From a virus, in IMG/VR virus record IMGVR_UViG_3300033552_000002, positions 1 to 64,000 of that record: a DNA stretch of 64,000 nt; one strand, 5' to 3'. The notes under the pieces were generated by a model. It ran no database searches. It had not been told where the DNA came from and saw only the letters and a list, made by a program, of their open reading frames with translations. A program made the translations under genes and the position numbers. This document shows, in pieces, positions 6,684 through 12,000 of this stretch. Numbering within the stretch: position 1 is the stretch's first letter; every line of letters starts with the position of its first letter.

Positions 6684-7016
6684 ATGAAAACAAGAATAAG
6701 TGAAAATTTTGAAAAAGTATTAGTTACTTTTTCTAAACAAGATACTACTGGAATTTGTACTGCAATAGATAAAACTAGAATGTCTCAAGAAGAAAGAGAA
6801 GAAATTTTTATTTTTTTTAGAAAGAATAAGCCAACTAAATCTTTACATAAAGAATTTTATGTAAATGACATATATACTGGCAATGCATTTTGGTGGCATT
6901 TATATGGTACAGACAGTAATTACCAAAGAGCTATGTTTTTAAAGAAAATGATTTTAATTTCTAATGTAATTCCTTGGTATAAATATCCTTTAATATGGCT
7001 GAAACAAATGGTATAA
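6684..7016 (+). CDS. hypothetical protein (110 aa)
   Basis: ORF packed directly after the previous stop. No motif recognised. Confidence 0.45.
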   Translation: MKTRISENFEKVLVTFSKQDTTGICTAIDKTRMSQEEREEIFIFFRKNKPTKSLHKEFYVNDIYTGNAFWWHLYGTDSNYQRAMFLKKMILISNVIPWYKYPLIWLKQMV

Positions 7017-7204
7017 TCTGGGACTGGAGCTGTAAAGATTCTACTAATATTCTATTTATATACAGAAAACGTGCAAGGACAGAAATAGAAATTGACATGA
7101 GATGCTATACAGCTGGAAGTGAAAGAATTGGAAGTATTTTTTTATTCAGAAAAGAAAGAGAAGTTTTAACTAAATTAAAAAATATGATGGTTAATGGAAA
7201 TTAA
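6995..7204 (+). CDS. hypothetical protein (69 aa)
   Basis: Short ORF overlapping both neighbours in the operon. Weak support. Confidence 0.3.
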   Translation: MAETNGIIWDWSCKDSTNILFIYRKRARTEIEIDMRCYTAGSERIGSIFLFRKEREVLTKLKNMMVNGN

Positions 7205-8045
7205 AAGTCAAATTACTAAAACTCTAGTAACTAGAGATAATACAAGAAGTAGTGATGCTATTTCACCTAATTTTATTTATGGTTGCTTAGGAGGTTGTAT
7301 GCAATCATACTGCTATGTAGGGAGGTTTAACAGAGACAAAGTTTATATTAATACAAATGTGGAGGCTGTTCTTAATTCTATCAATAAATGGTCAGAAAAT
7401 AAAGTTTTTCCTAAAACACCTAATCAAGTAGATGATACTTACTATTGTATAGATATAGGTTGTAGTACAGATGTAGCTTTACATGAAAAATACTATGATT
7501 GGCAAAAAGTGTTTGATTTCTTTAATGAACATCCTAAACTAAAATCTACATTTGCTACTAAATATCCAACTAAATTCAAGCTTGAAAAGTTTAATCTAGT
7601 TAAAGATAAGCATAGAATAAGAGTTAGCTTGATGCCACAAGTAATTTCTGATGTACTTGAACCTAATACAGATAAGATAATAGATAGAATAAATATGATA
7701 CCTATTTTACAAGATAAAATGGAAGTTCATATAAATTTTAGTCCTATTATTTATTATGATAACTGGCTTCAAGATTATAGAGAACTTTTTAGCCTACTAA
7801 AAGAGAAAAATATTGTTGTAAAATGTGAATGTATTTTCTTAACCTATAATAAGAATCAAGCTGTATTGAATTCTGCTGAGATAAACAAATTACTTTGGAG
7901 ACCTGAAATACAAGAAGATAAAAATTCACAATATGCTGCTGATAACATTAGATACCAATGGCAATTAAAGAATACTATGATTCAACAATTTAAGGTATTG
8001 TACTCTCAATATTTTGCTTTAGAAAATATTAGGTATATTTTTTAG
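7194..8045 (+). CDS. radical-SAM / SplB (DNA photolyase)-like protein, atypical Cys spacing
   Basis: The N-terminal YGCLGGCMQSYCYVGRF resembles the COG1533/SplB GCxxGCxYCYA cluster. The spacing is CX3CX4C rather than the canonical CX3CX2C. Confidence 0.35.
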   Translation: MEIKSQITKTLVTRDNTRSSDAISPNFIYGCLGGCMQSYCYVGRFNRDKVYINTNVEAVLNSINKWSENKVFPKTPNQVDDTYYCIDIGCSTDVALHEKYYDWQKVFDFFNEHPKLKSTFATKYPTKFKLEKFNLVKDKHRIRVSLMPQVISDVLEPNTDKIIDRINMIPILQDKMEVHINFSPIIYYDNWLQDYRELFSLLKEKNIVVKCECIFLTYNKNQAVLNSAEINKLLWRPEIQEDKNSQYAADNIRYQWQLKNTMIQQFKVLYSQYFALENIRYIF

Positions 8046-8053
8046 TAAATAAC

Positions 8054-8083
8054 TTGGCAGATTGAAAACTTTTTATATATTTG
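8054..8083 (+). promoter_or_regulatory. Bacteroidota-type promoter (TTG-N19-TATATTTG)
   Basis: TATATTTG (8076-8083) fits the TAnnTTTG -7 consensus, with TTG at 8054-8056. The ATG at 8088 lies 4 nt after the box, which implies a leaderless mRNA. Confidence 0.5.
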
Positions 8084-8087
8084 CACT

Positions 8088-8156
8088 ATGAAAACACAAA
8101 ATCAATATGAACATTTCTTTAATTATTCTAGTAATAGGACAAGGATTGGCATATAA
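8088..8156 (+). CDS. 22-codon leader peptide ORF (MKTQNQYEHFFNYSSNRTRIGI)
   Basis: ATG..TAA ORF lying between the promoter-like box and the hairpin terminator. Codons 8103-8120 are CAA TAT GAA CAT TTC TTT (Q Y E H F F), matching the five downstream tRNA specificities. Confidence 0.45.
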   Translation: MKTQNQYEHFFNYSSNRTRIGI

Positions 8157-8182
8157 ATATATAACGTAAGTTAAATTTAATC

Positions 8183-8213
8183 AAATCCTTCCTAACAGAA
8201 GGATTTTTTATTT
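8183..8213 (+). terminator. intrinsic terminator / attenuator hairpin immediately upstream of tRNA-Glu
   Basis: AAATCCTTC (8183-8191), loop CTAACA, GAAGGATTT (8198-8206), then TTTATTT. The alternative pairing partner GGacAAGGATT lies at 8137-8147. Confidence 0.7.
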
Positions 8214-8215
8214 CT

Positions 8216-8290
8216 GCTGCTTTAGTATAATTGGAATAGTACACAGGACTTTCACTCCTGCAGATGCGGGTTCGATTCCCGTAGGCAGTA
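8216..8290 (+). tRNA. tRNA-Glu (anticodon UUC)
   Basis: Hand-folded cloverleaf. Acceptor GCTGCTT/AGGCAGT (2 G-U pairs); anticodon arm CAGGA-CTTTCAC-TCCTG; T arm GCGGG-TTCGATT-CCCGT. Confidence 0.8.
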
Positions 8291-8298
8291 CAAAATTT

Positions 8299-8381
8299 GG
8301 GTAAGTATGCAAGTGGTTAAAGCTGGTGGTCTGTAACACCATCCTCATTAGAGTTCATAGGTTCAAATCCTATCTTGCCCA
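8299..8381 (+). tRNA. tRNA-Tyr (anticodon GUA), long variable arm
   Basis: Acceptor GGGTAAG/CTTGCCC; anticodon arm GTGGT-CTGTAAC-ACCAT; 14-nt variable arm (CTC-ATTA-GAG); T arm ATAGG-TTCAAAT-CCTAT. The D stem is weak. Confidence 0.75.
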
Positions 8382-8397
8382 CAATATTGTCAGCTAT

Positions 8398-8469
8398 TAT
8401 CTTATAGTGTAATTGGTAACACAACTGCCTTTGAAGTAGTTATTTTAGGTTCGAGTCCTGATAAGATAA
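8398..8469 (+). tRNA. tRNA-Gln (anticodon UUG)
   Basis: Acceptor TATCTTA/TAAGATA; D arm GTGT-AATTGGTA-ACAC; anticodon arm ACTGC-CTTTGAA-GTAGT; T arm TTAGG-TTCGAGT-CCTGA. Confidence 0.8.
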
Positions 8470-8517
8470 CAAGTTAACTCTTTTAAAGAGACAGGAGAGA
8501 GGAGAGTAGCCTTACTA

Positions 8518-8590
8518 GCGTGGATGGCAGATATGGTATATGCACTGGTTTGAAGAACCAGCTATAGAGGTTCGAGTCCTCTTCCTCGCA
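8518..8590 (+). tRNA. tRNA-Phe (anticodon GAA)
   Basis: Acceptor GCGTGGA/TCCTCGC (one U-U mismatch); anticodon arm CTGGT-TTGAAGA-ACCAG; T arm AGAGG-TTCGAGT-CCTCT. Confidence 0.75.
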
Positions 8591-8627
8591 CTATATGTGT
8601 GTTATAACTATAATAAAAAATATAAAT

Positions 8628-8813
8628 ATGGCAAAAATAATAGTATTAGGTGTATCTAAAAAAATGATAGATACTAAACTGATGTTACACAGATTCGGGG
8701 CACATCTTAGATTTAATTCTCAGGAATTACTTGATAAGGCAGTGAAATTGGGTTTTGATAAAGAATTTTGGGAAAAAAGAAACTATCCTAATAAAGTAGA
8801 GATTAGCAAGTAA
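8628..8813 (+). CDS. hypothetical small protein embedded in the tRNA array (61 aa from the second ATG; the ORF track starts at 8595)
   Basis: The ORF track gives 8595..8813, but 8595 lies 5 nt after tRNA-Phe. The internal ATG at 8628 (MAKIIVLGV...) is preferred. Confidence 0.45.
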   Translation: MAKIIVLGVSKKMIDTKLMLHRFGAHLRFNSQELLDKAVKLGFDKEFWEKRNYPNKVEISK

Positions 8814-8824
8814 TACACATACAT

Positions 8825-8898
8825 GGTGATTGTAGCTGAATTGGTAAAGCACCTGATTGTGGTTCAGGAGATTGTGGGTTCAAGTCCCACCTTTCACA
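8825..8898 (+). tRNA. tRNA-His (anticodon GUG) with extra 5' G(-1); imperfect acceptor
   Basis: Anticodon arm CCTGA-TTGTGGT-TCAGG; T arm GTGGG-TTCAAGT-CCCAC; G at -1 as expected for His. The acceptor GTGATTG/CTTTCAC has two U-U mismatches and the discriminator is A. Confidence 0.6.
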
Positions 8899-8995
8899 CA
8901 AAATAGTAAGCGGACTCAGTAGTGTGGGCAGTACCTTTTAATGGTATGGAACAAAGAAGATGTGATGTAATTTCACTCCTTATTATTTTTATTAG

Positions 8996-9036
8996 AAAAG
9001 CAGAAGTGAAATAAACCTCACTTCTGCTTCTTTTTT
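8996..9036. terminator. bidirectional hairpin terminator at the convergent junction
   Basis: GCAGAAGTGA (9000-9009) pairs with TCACTTCTGC (9018-9027). It is flanked by an A run on the left and a T run on the right, between the plus-strand block and the stop of the 1578-aa minus-strand gene (9040). Confidence 0.75.
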
Positions 9037-9039
9037 ACT

Positions 9040-12000
9040 TTACTGTTCTATCAAATCTTGATCTTCATCATAGTTTTCTATATCAGGATTTCCACTTTCA
9101 AGGTTAGCCTGTTTCTTAGCTTCTCTTTTAATTTTGTCCTGTTCTGAAGAAGTTAGTTCATTAAAATCTACATCATTATCTTTTTCATAATCTTCAATGA
9201 AGTCTTGTCTTATTTCATTTCTTTTTTCAGTATTAGCTTTCTTATCTTCTTTATAATCAGAATCAAATAAACCATCTGTAATTTCTGTTTTATCCCATTC
9301 TGTAAGCATTGAATTTTCAAATCCAAATCTGTAAGTATCTTGTCCAATTCCTCTAAACAAAGAAGGTACAAACATAGCTCTTACAGCATTTCCTAATTTA
9401 TTTTGTCCTTGTCTAGGCCCTTTCTGTACTTCATCAAAAGGAGACAATACAGCTTTACTTAATTTATTCATAGCTTTGATCTGAGATTCTACTCCACCTT
9501 CAGTTCCAGAAGAGTAAAGTGCCATAGGGTCTACAGCAAGTGTAGTTTCACTAATAGTTTGAGTCCACATATTTTCAAAGAAATTATATACTTCTTTATT
9601 TTCAGCCTTAGCTTTTTGTTGAGCATCAAAATTAGCTCTTTGTAAACTACCTTCTTTACCTTTAGGTACATCTTCTTCTCCATCTCCCAACATGGCAGCC
9701 ATTGATAGTTTCACTAAAGCTACTAACAATATAGTCTGCATATTTCTAGATAAAAGTCTTATATCCTTAGCTTCCTGTTCTGTAAGGGGGCCTAGACTTA
9801 TAGGTTTGATTAATTCTTTGCCTACTACAGTATTTACAGGCATCTCCAGATAAGCTTTAGGGCTCATACTAAGTTTAAGTACATACAAAAGTTGTTGCAT
9901 TATAGCAATAGGTTCAGTTTGATTTACTCCTAATAAAGCTGTAGAACTTTTATTTGATGCATACTTTGCATAACCAGCTCCAAGAGCAATTCCACCTAGA
10001 CTTATTCCAGCTAATATAGGTGAGATTGTCAGTGCTCCTAATCCTGCTGTTACACCTAATATTACACCTGCAGCTACAGAAGTTCTCTTATTAAGTAAAC
10101 TAGCCAGCAAATAGCCTGTTTCTTCTTCACCAGTAAGTATATTCTTTTGTTTGTATCTCCATCTAGAAGATAAATATCTAGGTAGCCAAGTTTTAAAAGT
10201 TGCTAAAGGTTTTGTTATTAAACTTCCTTTGATTCTAGTTACTCCATATTTAGTATAATCCCCATTCATACTATTGTTCATATTTTCAACATCTAGTTTC
10301 CAATTTCCAATATCTTCAGAAGTTGTATCTATGAAATGTTCTCTGTTTGCTGGAGTGTCAAATTCAGGTTTGAGTTTCAAAACTCCATTTTCAATAGTAT
10401 ATGCAACAAAATTATCTCCATTATGGAAATCATGTTCTACACCATTTACATCTTTTATAAACAAATCCATTGCCATACAAAGAATCCCTTTAACCTGATT
10501 CCTATTTTCTACCTTTTCAGTTAAATAATTAGGTTGTGTCCAGTTTGCTCTATTTTTTATTTCAGCCTCAGCTTTCTGTAATTCATTGGTTCCAGTTTCA
10601 ACTATATTAAGCTTATCAATAAACAATTTAGTAATGTCATATTCTCTTTGAAAACTTGGTACTATCTTTCTATTGGTCCATTTTAAATCTACAGTATGTT
10701 GTATTTTATATATATTACCTTTTTTCCAGAATTCACCATCCCTTGTTAATGCTGCTATAAAACCTTGTCTATAGTTATTTAAAGCTGCCAAAGCATTAAA
10801 ACCTAAACCTACTTTAACTCTTAATTTATTTACCACATTGTCCCACAATGCACTTACCATGTAATCTTTACCTAAAATACCTAATCTACTTTCTATGTTT
10901 GCTTTTTCTTGAAGTAATTCTTCTTTTCTGGTTCCTGTTGCAGTTAAAAGATCATTTTCAATTCTACTTAAGCTTTTTATTGCAGAATTATAAATTATTT
11001 TTTCTTCTTTATTAAAGTTTTTATAATAGAGTTTAGTAATGTTAAGAACATTTACATCTTGTTTATTCATTAAGTCTATAAGCTCTTTACTACCATTCCA
11101 GAAATGCTTTTTTTCATTCTTATTAAGAATAACTTGATCATAAAAAAAATCTTGTCTTTTAATTTCATTTTCTCTGTCTTTTCCTTGAGTTTGAAAAGCT
11201 GTATTCCTGGCCACTTTAATTTTACCACTATTCAATCTGTAAATATTAGTTTCATCTTTAGACTCAGTTTTAGCTTTATGGTCTGCAGAAAGTTCTAATA
11301 AACCTTTCAACATAATTGGAAGATTTAAAGACTGTTGCTGCATAATTTTTATCTGAGAAAAAATCTTTAAAGATGGTGTAGTAAAAGTGTCATTTCCACC
11401 TACTTTATCAATAAAGTCATATTCATTTATAGCTCCAGTAACTTTAATTATGTCATTTTTCTGTTTTTGAGAAAGACCTTTCCAGGAAATTTTAGTTTTA
11501 GGTAATAAAGTGTTACCTAATATGTTAGATATTTCAGTTTTAAGTAAACCAAAATCTGCTTGTATCTGACTTTCTACTGTTTTTATTTCATGTGATAGGG
11601 CCACTACATCTTCTTTAGATGTAATTCTGCTTTTATCACTAAAAATATTTTTCCAGAAACCAAGTAAATTAGTGTATTTAAGTAAACCTTCTACTAGAAA
11701 ATCTTTATTTGATTTATTTATAACTTGTTGAGTTATACCCTTTTGAAAGTCTAATATAGAGTAGTGATTCAATTTCATATTTGAATCTACAAAATTTTCA
11801 TTTATCTTTAGAATACCAGCTCTAGAAGCTTTCCAAAGATTATGTAATGGAGCATTATTTTCAAAGTTCTCAAACTGAGAATCATAAAAATTATTTTGCA
11901 TGCCAAGACTGTTCACTCTCTTTGGTATAAAAGTGTTATAGGTTAAATAAGCAGGTTTTGCATTATTTTGTGTACCTTGAGTTATTACAACCATATTACC

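Follow-up and report, generated by a model that had tools for sequence, protein, structure and literature searches.

A putative leader-peptide attenuator preceding a five-gene tRNA array in a crAss-like phage, and related leader modules in other phages of Bacteroidota

The stretch of DNA analysed here, referred to as the window, comprises positions 1 to 64,000 of the IMG/VR virus record IMGVR_UViG_3300033552_000002. It belongs to a crAss-like phage with huge minus-strand open reading frames (ORFs) and a G+C content of about 30%. Between positions 8054 and 8899 the plus strand carries a predicted promoter, a short ORF, a hairpin with the features of an intrinsic terminator, and five transfer RNA (tRNA) genes. 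A first-pass annotation of the window, made from the sequence alone, had described this arrangement as a ribosome-mediated attenuator of the tRNA operon. The anatomy that it reported (the TTG and its promoter box, the ATG at 8088, the ORF, the codons for QYEHFF at 8103-8120, the hairpin and the order of the tRNA genes) was found to be right at each position given. The features are as follows; the tRNA genes were called by ARAGORN and are listed with their Rfam scores.

8054-8083, plus strand: predicted promoter of the host-type Bacteroidota sigma-A class, with the -33 element TTG at 8054-8056, a 19-nt spacer and the -7 box TATATTTG at 8076-8083
8088-8156, plus strand: leader ORF, predicted to be leaderless, 22 codons plus stop, MKTQNQYEHFFNYSSNRTRIGI
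8097-8126, plus strand: sensor codons 4-13 of the leader ORF, CAA AAT CAA TAT GAA CAT TTC TTT AAT TAT
8105-8119, plus strand: region 1, which pairs with 8141-8154 in the untranslated minimum-energy fold as an anti-antiterminator hairpin of about -7.5 kcal/mol
8135-8147, plus strand: region 2, the 5' strand of the antiterminator, G-rich TAGGACAAGGATT, which repeats the terminator 3' arm and is placed 7-19 nt ahead of the stop codon
8183-8213, plus strand: intrinsic terminator, with arms at 8183-8191 (AAATCCTTC) and 8198-8206 (GAAGGATTT), the loop CTAACA and a U tract at 8207-8213
8216-8291, plus strand: tRNA-Glu (UUC), 61.4 bits
8299-8382, plus strand: tRNA-Tyr (GUA), 50.6 bits
8398-8470, plus strand: tRNA-Gln (UUG), 64 bits
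8518-8591, plus strand: tRNA-Phe (GAA), 56 bits
8826-8899, plus strand: tRNA-His (GUG), 66.9 bits

No sixth tRNA was found in the window, relaxed thresholds included.

Codons 8103-8120 of the leader ORF read CAA TAT GAA CAT TTC TTT, and the additional CAA at 8097 and TAT at 8124 that had been pointed out earlier are present. Eight of the 10 sensor codons are read by the five downstream tRNAs, each of which is represented at least once, whereas codons of this set make up 21.7% of the phage's own genes (binomial p=1.4e-4). A run of five residues made up of Q, Y, E, H and F in any order is found at three of the 127,972 six-frame positions of the window, the leader's own included. The chance of such a run is about 3e-4 for the leader ORF and rises to about 3e-3 when any frame of the 170-nt gap is allowed, both figures being post hoc. 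The hand estimate of about 1e-4 made in the first-pass annotation is of the right order when set against the binomial and run statistics. Taken alone, the window provides moderate, suggestive evidence (p about 1e-4 to 3e-3), and it is the comparison with other phages that decides.

By inspection, the ATG at 8088 lies 4 nt 3' of the TATATTTG box. In the transcription start site map of Flavobacterium psychrophilum the sigma-A box TAnnTTTG is located at -12 to -5, and 5.5% of the transcripts in this bacterium are leaderless mRNAs (PMC9723704). Because of this box position, +1 of the window's leader is predicted to fall on the A of the ATG itself, in agreement with the leaderless transcript that had been proposed. 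The promoter core, TAnnTTTGCnnTATGAAAACA, is kept in the closest relative (L006/L007, described below) and in more than 18 further tRNA leaders. Of 125 IMG/VR matches to the start module TAnnTTTG-N4-ATGAAAACA, 79 lie at the head of ORFs with 60 codons or more, and the module also precedes annotated coding sequences in the phages MA9V-2 and Larrie. Since the module opens ordinary protein genes, it is most simply read as a genuine translation start.

The terminator hairpin comprises 9 bp, three of them G-C pairs, with a 6-nt loop, and is followed by TTTATTTCT; its folding energy is -9.1 to -9.7 kcal/mol. tRNA-Glu begins at 8216, 9 nt past the terminator stem, and the terminator ends at 8213, 2 nt before this gene. 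The segment GGACAAGGATT (8137-8147), noted earlier as a copy of the terminator 3' arm, is indeed complementary to 8184-8192. In constrained folds the antiterminator pairing of 8135-8147 with 8184-8194 excludes the terminator, and the region 2 duplex, at -7.3 kcal/mol against -2.9 kcal/mol for shuffled sequences, is more stable than expected (p=0.012). The fold of the untranslated leader contains the region 1 hairpin (8105-8119 with 8141-8154) together with the terminator, at -18.6 kcal/mol; region 1 spans the codons TAT GAA CAT TTC TTT. When the transcript stops at 8196 and the 3' arm has yet to be made, the antiterminator forms instead (-12.9 kcal/mol). When a ribosome was represented by masking the sensor codons (8088-8128), the antiterminator fold was obtained, at -13.3 kcal/mol, and masking 8139-8169 around the stop codon gave the terminator fold, at -10.7 kcal/mol. 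The comparison of terminator and antiterminator folds that the first-pass annotation had called for thus shows a switch in the proposed direction. Ribosome reach, estimated by hand from standard footprint sizes, fits the same scheme: with the A site on the last cognate codon (8124) the ribosome would extend to about 8136, just short of region 2, and at the stop codon it would cover 8139-8166. The region 1 hairpin appears to be the weakest part of this switch model.

The 95-kb source contig is identical to the window. A single close relative, L006/L007, was recovered, in which the upstream gene, of the spore-photoproduct-lyase (SPL) family, is 84% identical to that of the window. The relative retains the promoter core, the ATG, 22 codons in the same frame, region 2 (identical in L006) and the stop codon. 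Its leader peptide is MKTSIQHNQFFNYPSNRTRIGI, beginning MKTSIQHNQFFNYPSN. Between the window and L006 leaders, nine of 10 nucleotide changes are non-synonymous by our count, and we read a G-C to A-U double change in L006 as keeping one of the region 1 pairs (8109/8150). The two assemblies (L006 1..1856 and L007 1..1852) break at one and the same base (..CACTAAATC), just 5' of the terminator hairpin. A break shared in this way hints at differences between strains, either within the tRNA cassette or beyond it.

Further cases were first met at a weak tRNA-Gln match in the Tenacibaculum phage Gundel_1, which displays the architecture twice in its tRNA region. One leader, TATGTTTG-CCGT-ATGAAAACA.., encodes MKTKLYSYSCFSSWFKNRAG and is followed by a terminator and then by Trp-like, Phe, Ser, unassigned and Ser tRNAs. 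The other, TATATTTG-CAGT-ATGAAAACA.., encodes MKTNNLHIQQNNLPVFLEGFLYM and is followed by a terminator, an HNH gene and Pro, Gln, Met, Asn and Leu tRNAs; its terminator (AAATCCTTCC..GGAAGGATTT) is nearly identical to that of the window. The family was collected by scanning IMG/VR for TANNTTTGCNNTATGAAAACA, by applying a stricter pattern to IMG/VR and GTDB genomes, and by blastn of the leaders against cultured phages. Loci were picked by the promoter/start motif and not by peptide content. A looser pattern, TANNTTTGNNNNATGAAAACA, yielded no tRNA leaders among the 120 IMG/VR matches listed. Leader-like blastn matches in the Chryseobacterium phage MA9V-2 and the Tenacibaculum phage Larrie were set aside as ordinary genes that share the promoter/start module.

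The resulting family comprises 23 leaders besides L006, with ORFs of 20-32 codons that start at the predicted +1 and stop just past region 2. The order of the module is TAnnTTTG-N4-ATGAAAACA, variable codons, G-rich segment, stop, terminator, tRNA. It precedes tRNA blocks in Gundel_1 (twice) and, with a leader for each block, in the Cellulophaga phages phi4:1 and Calle_1 and the Maribacter phage Panino. Further cases come from IMG/VR contigs and from two contigs of metagenome-assembled genomes (MAGs). The following loci, with tRNAs called by ARAGORN, illustrate how leader and array change together.

L152: leader MKTKRLHLEQLEQP.., tRNAs Pro Glu Gln His Leu Leu Arg
L169: leader MKTTKLYLSLSYSLLS.., tRNAs Tyr Leu Ser Ser Leu
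L183: leader MKTQSLYLSFCYSL.., tRNAs Tyr Phe Leu Ser Cys
L288: leader MKTNFTPSTFYCFPRRFP.., tRNAs Pro Tyr Phe Cys Arg(UCU) Thr
Calle_1: leader MKTIMNIATDIRTKGVK.., tRNAs Lys Ile Gly Met Asp Thr Val Arg(UCU)
Calle_1: leader MKTNMTYNNFSWYSNCSFSSYN.., tRNAs (Tyr) Ser Ser Asn Trp (Phe, Cys), with Tyr, Phe and Cys called at the relaxed threshold only
Calle_1: leader MNARLLHQEPLEQLRLP.., tRNAs Pro Glu Gln His Leu Arg(ACG)

The block structure of phi4:1 and Panino is as in Calle_1. The relation between leader and array was quantified as the cognate fraction, defined as the share of codons 4-16 that fall in codon boxes served by a downstream tRNA. Across 20 pairs its mean was 0.78, compared with 0.32+-0.06 when arrays were permuted among leaders, and none of 100,000 permutations reached the observed value. 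The difference persisted in 11 non-redundant pairs (0.73 against 0.30+-0.07; 0 of 100,000) and with default-threshold tRNA calls only (0.70 against 0.28+-0.05; 0 of 200,000); on average 95% of the codon boxes of an array, by these default-threshold tRNAs, are represented in its own leader. The match is specific to the ATG frame (0.78, against 0.17 in frame +1 and 0.19 in frame +2) and to the middle of the ORF, with a cognate fraction of 0.1-0.2 at codons 1-3, a peak of 0.75-1.0 at codons 7-14 and values of mostly 0.2-0.4 from codon 18 on. Moreover, it extends to the level of the codon box: CGN codons accompany Arg-ACG and AGR codons Arg-UCU, UUR/CUN codons accompany Leu-UAA/Leu-UAG, and UCN/AGY codons accompany Ser-UGA/Ser-GCU. 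The window leader covers all five of its own tRNAs, and among the other arrays only the nine-box array of L213 gives it a higher match score S. The Tyr-Leu-Ser-Ser-Phe-Cys block on the minus strand of L203 served as an out-of-sample check, and MKKFSFCLSYWLSFYT.. with a matching terminator was found in front of it. The co-variation of leader codons with tRNA repertoire that had been proposed as a comparative test is therefore strong and frame-specific, with no permutation in 100,000-200,000 reaching it.

The RNA elements of the switch recur in the same way. An intrinsic terminator is present in 23 of 23 leaders, 18-49 nt past the stop codon (mostly 23-28), and its end lies 4-21 nt before the first ARAGORN tRNA in most, being farther away or overlapping in Gundel_a, Gundel_b, L192, L177 and Calle_B. 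All 23 leaders also hold, in the 3' part of the ORF, a G-rich segment complementary to the 5' arm of the terminator (Fisher p=6e-13 against shuffles). This segment pairs with its own terminator arm at -10.3 kcal/mol and with swapped arms at -8.0+-0.4 kcal/mol, a difference reached in 0 of 100,000 permutations.

Taken together, these computational data suggest, with a probability that we put at roughly 0.8, that the window leader is a ribosome-mediated leader-peptide attenuator that places the tRNA genes under negative feedback by their own supply of charged tRNA. The attenuation reading of the first-pass annotation is thereby supported, by computation only, through codon co-variation, ribosome-mask folds and the conserved terminator and antiterminator. 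In this model the host RNA polymerase would start at the A of ATG 8088, giving a leaderless mRNA on which a ribosome could load once the 5' end emerges. Were charged Gln, Tyr, Glu, His and Phe tRNAs scarce, the ribosome would linger on codons 4-13 (8097-8126) and leave region 2 (8135-8147) free to pair with 8184-8194, so that the terminator would be blocked and transcription would read through into the five tRNAs. Were they plentiful, the ribosome would reach the stop codon at 8154 and cover region 2, allowing the hairpin 8183-8206 and its U tract to terminate transcription 2 nt before tRNA-Glu. If the leader were not translated, region 1 (8105-8119) would pair with region 2 and the terminator would form as well. 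The transcription start, translation of the ORF, efficiency of termination, direction of the response and physiological trigger are the parts that we infer. Candidate triggers are host anticodon nucleases, a mismatch in codon usage with the host and the decay of host tRNA at a late stage of infection. A shortage of tRNA and a shortage of amino acid would look alike to the sensor. More generally, it is quite probable that phages of Bacteroidota (of Flavobacteriia, and at least one Bacteroidales-associated contig) carry demand-driven tRNA modules, in which one leaderless leader per block senses up to nine amino acids and transcription rises only when charged tRNAs run short.

Other readings of the locus were weighed against the same data. 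The element might act as RNA only, either as a small RNA ending at 8213 or as a riboswitch- or T-box-like sensor that works by base pairing, with an ORF that is never translated. Indeed, the unit of about 125 nt from promoter to terminator could equally make a free small RNA, the 3' half of the L006 leader is better conserved than its codon run, and translation of the ORF is a prediction. We nevertheless consider this unlikely: the tRNA match is confined to the ATG frame (0.78 against 0.17 and 0.19) and involves consecutive in-frame codons, with up to nine different amino acids running, every ORF in the family begins at the predicted +1 and ends directly past region 2, after 20-32 codons, and the start module opens genuine protein genes. 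Neither a T-box nor any other Rfam family is matched, Phe_leader alone appearing with 24-28 bits against a gathering threshold of 55. Recurrence tells against coincidence, in which the hairpin would be a leaky terminator, belonging to the upstream SPL gene or to a constitutive short transcript, and the tRNAs would be made by unregulated read-through. Judged from the window only, such an origin might seem plausible, given statistics of moderate strength (about 3e-4 to 3e-3, post hoc), a promoter pattern no commoner than chance and a weak terminator; however, the arrangement is found in more than 20 loci of different phage families with codons that track the local tRNA set, and region 2 co-varies with the terminator arm. 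A coincidence would not recur with different amino-acid sets and is contradicted by the permutation tests, which makes it very improbable.

It is equally hard to credit that the ORF is the gene of a working small peptide, a membrane or regulatory one for instance, and merely adjoins the tRNAs. Several members of the family are annotated as hypothetical proteins (PANI_CDS0063, Phi4:1_gp075 and gp076), yet beyond MKT and the G-rich 3' part they have no common sequence, only 3-7 of 16 residues being identical to those of the window, and their composition changes with the neighbouring tRNAs. The non-synonymous changes, nine of the 10 that separate window and L006, also argue against a conserved product, and RNA pairing explains the parts that are conserved. 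A further reading is a translation-coupled attenuator that serves as a general timer or capacity gauge, responding to ribosomes, amino-acid starvation or the coupling of transcription and translation and not to specific tRNAs. A stalled ribosome cannot distinguish a missing tRNA from a missing amino acid, and leaderless initiation depends on the availability of 70S ribosomes. A gauge of this kind would have no need for codons that follow the anticodons down to the level of the Arg, Leu and Ser codon boxes, and we therefore hold it to be improbable. Frame-specific co-variation, recurrence and RNA pairing were thus the grounds on which an SPL-gene terminator with a chance promoter, a small RNA, a T-box-like sensor and a micro-protein were rejected.

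Several observations weigh against the attenuator model. The claim of a Bacteroidota promoter stands as far as the fit to the consensus goes, which is exact, and does not stand on frequency: TTG-N19-TAnnTTTG and TAnnTTTG-N4-ATG each have two matches in the 64-kb window where about two are expected, so that the pattern is no more frequent than chance. The window phage does not seem, from its sequence, to use host sigma-A promoters widely, and the tRNA cassette may be among its few host-polymerase units. As a crAss-like phage it may use polymerases of its own for most genes, and use of a host-type promoter during infection is presumed here. Within codons 4-16 of the window leader, three Asn and two Ser codons are without a cognate tRNA downstream. 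These leftover codons may be accounted for because the leader appears to resemble the Tyr/Ser/Asn/Trp/Phe/Cys class (cf. MKTQN..FNYSN, L285), the first half having been re-written to QYEH. The L006/L007 leader is without a Glu codon, and its contigs end inside the leader, so this comparison neither confirms nor refutes the model. The window terminator is weak, with three G-C pairs and about -9 to -10 kcal/mol, and the fold of the whole leader barely beats shuffles (z=-1.9, with 10 of 200 shuffles equally good). In the family, L308 has an S of only 0.38, 10 of the 23 antiterminators are individually no better than shuffles, and in the long leaders L146, L192, L213 and L285 region 2 lies 27-34 nt before the stop codon, beyond the reach of a ribosome halted there. 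The minus-strand Lys-Ile-Gly.. block of L203 is preceded by a 9-codon ORF, MKTSKKYKR, and no terminator. Finally, because leaders of one class are homologous across phages, the 21 pairs amount to nearer 10 independent instances of co-variation.

The tRNA blocks of the family display some further regularities. In phi4:1 (L239, NC_021788 87.0-91.0 kb), Panino (L240) and Calle_1 (L241), three leader-controlled blocks together span all 20 amino acids: Pro-Glu-Gln-His-Leu-Leu-Arg(ACG), Ala-Lys-Ile-Gly-Met-Asp-Thr-Val-Arg(UCU) and Tyr-Ser-Ser-Asn-Trp-Phe-Cys. The blocks are grouped roughly by first codon base, as C-, A-/G- and U-. Annotated feature coordinates of Calle_1 (L241) are offset by about 52 nt from the ARAGORN coordinates on the stored sequence. 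The transfer-messenger RNA (tmRNA) calls in Panino (SsrA, L240 7262-7594) and phi4:1 (ARAGORN 'tmRNA*', L239 7156-7817) span ordinary tRNA genes and coding sequence, and look like false positives. In L203 (8940-9215 and 9900-10060, minus strand) one leader is not leaderless and follows a CAU-anticodon tRNA-like gene placed directly at a sigma-A promoter; the Lys-Ile-Gly.. block lies next to it. tRNAs missed or left unassigned by default ARAGORN and by the deposited annotations lie in L012 (1638-1781 and 1959-2033) and just past the terminators of L146, L177 and L183. These are often Tyr-GUA, Trp-CCA or Cys-GCA, identities that the leader peptides 'predict'. In a non-exhaustive scan of GTDB genomes, two of 63 motif matches precede tRNAs, both on MAG contigs of about 80-110 kb. 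These are L288 (Bacteroidales bacterium STF1_8 MAG, 109-kb contig) and L285 (Lacinutrix sp. MAG, 79-kb contig); the contigs are phage-sized and may be mis-binned phages. L288 brings the element to Bacteroidales-associated sequences.

Returning to the window, the array is interrupted by an orphan ORF of 61 codons (8628-8813) between tRNA-Phe and tRNA-His, which sets tRNA-His apart from the other four. It had no homologue but itself among 5.8 billion clustered proteins, its 90% cluster being a longer call of the same gene, and it may be an insertion that splits the array. One further feature lies beyond tRNA-His.

8998-9029, strand unassigned: strong hairpin with a T run, 12 pairs of which five are G-C, located between convergent modules

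This hairpin is the probable end of the tRNA transcription unit. The intervening sequence of about 100 nt (8900-8997) folds at -16.8 kcal/mol and gives an L20_leader match with E=0.03, far below threshold.

Directly 5' of the leader, the gene at 7194-8045 encodes the SPL-family protein (Pfam SPL, E=2.6e-13). At E<=1e-20 this protein has 818 homologues, many of them from phage-sized contigs of 50-125 kb. The phage FpV4 of F. psychrophilum, the nearest cultured phage, has a major capsid protein 84% identical to that of the window phage. The half of the FpV4 genome with the corresponding junction contains no tRNAs. When IMG/VR and JGI metagenomes were scanned with the SPL and tail proteins, the relatives returned were 53-67% identical and had no tRNAs nearby, and the contigs of the SPL homologues P0003, P0004, P0005, P0007, P0013 and P0020 carry other genes, and no tRNAs, 3' of SPL. 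Because these distant SPL-bearing relatives and FpV4 have no tRNAs at the junction, the cassette is, to judge from the genomes compared, a recent acquisition in the lineage of the window phage. Nucleotide searches of window positions 7000-9100 against INPHARED by blastn gave matches at the tRNA level only, the leader 20-mer AGTAATAGGACAAGGATTGG did not occur in IMG/VR or GTDB genomes, and a protein search with the C-terminus of a 1578-aa protein was dominated by low-complexity words and gave no useful match.

The control of phage-borne tRNAs is essentially uncharted, and their purpose is debated between compensation of codon usage, replacement of a decaying host pool and resistance to tRNA-cleaving defences. 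If the model is correct, attenuation would for the first time have been found to act on tRNA genes, and a virus would for the first time have been shown to possess a feedback loop for tRNA supply. Phage tRNA genes would then be deployed on demand, the debate over their purpose would become testable, and leader-peptide attenuation would extend to non-coding RNA genes and to viruses. In addition, Bacteroidota, for which genetic tools are scarce, would gain a natural and compact sensor of aminoacyl-tRNA levels that reads several amino acids at once. Some 'hypothetical proteins' would be re-annotated as leader peptides, and, since a leader lists the tRNAs behind it, it would give an independent clue to the identity of phage tRNAs that software leaves unassigned.

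Full-text literature searches returned no account in which tRNA genes, or the tRNA arrays of phages, are controlled by leader peptides or attenuation, and the paper on phage Panino discusses its tRNAs with no mention of leaders. In a search of window positions 7500-9500 against Rfam at E<=1, there was no match to the T-box (RF00230), and no known leader or riboswitch family reached its gathering threshold. Phe_leader (RF01859) scored 24.3 bits (E=0.33) in the window, with 27.9 bits for Gundel_1, and Thr_leader (RF00506) scored 23.1 bits, all well below the threshold of 55 bits.

The best functional parallel is the Escherichia coli pheST attenuator, in which the short leader ORF pheM, with its Phe codons, senses the supply of charged tRNA through alternative antiterminator and terminator structures. 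The phage leader is alike in its short ORF with the relevant codons, its antiterminator and terminator, and its target within the translation apparatus. However, pheM is cellular, Shine-Dalgarno-led and monovalent (Phe) and regulates an aminoacyl-tRNA synthetase, whereas the phage leader is viral, is predicted to be leaderless, addresses five amino acids (up to nine in its relatives) and has the tRNAs themselves as targets, which would make the feedback direct. The leaders trpL, hisL, pheL, thrL, leuL and ilvL share the logic of regions 1-2-3-4, the run of regulatory codons and the favouring of the terminator by a ribosome at the stop codon. Precedents for multivalency exist in thr (Thr/Ile) and ilvGMEDA (Ile/Leu/Val), and there is the weak, sub-threshold Rfam likeness to Phe_leader and Thr_leader. 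Unlike these leaders of amino-acid operons, the phage leader controls tRNA genes and not biosynthetic enzymes, shows no sequence homology or Rfam membership, holds region 2 within the ORF before the stop codon and not after it, and presents a mixed string of single codons in place of a homopolymeric run.

T-box riboswitches likewise sense tRNA status and switch between terminator and antiterminator 5' of translation-related genes. They recognise uncharged tRNA by direct contact, using a specifier codon and the T-box sequence and independently of translation, whereas the signal in the phage leader is an in-frame codon string. Clustered tRNAs in lytic phages such as phi4:1, T4 and T5 are comparable arrays, and the published members of the present family carry 15-24 tRNAs; expression of such clusters is not known to involve leader peptides. 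Leader-peptide attenuation has been seen in amino-acid operons of F. psychrophilum, where it was deduced from transcriptome structure (PMC9723704). These operons resemble the phage leaders in host lineage, sigma-A promoter type and mechanism, and differ in being bacterial biosynthesis operons, not tRNA genes or phages (PMC9723704). Overall, the mechanism proposed for the window belongs to a classical type, and its use on tRNA genes, in viruses and with leaderless multivalent sensors appears to be new. To our knowledge, all of the leader-peptide attenuators described so far regulate genes for amino-acid biosynthesis or aminoacyl-tRNA synthetases, and the phage leader is set apart from them because the genes that it would regulate are tRNAs.

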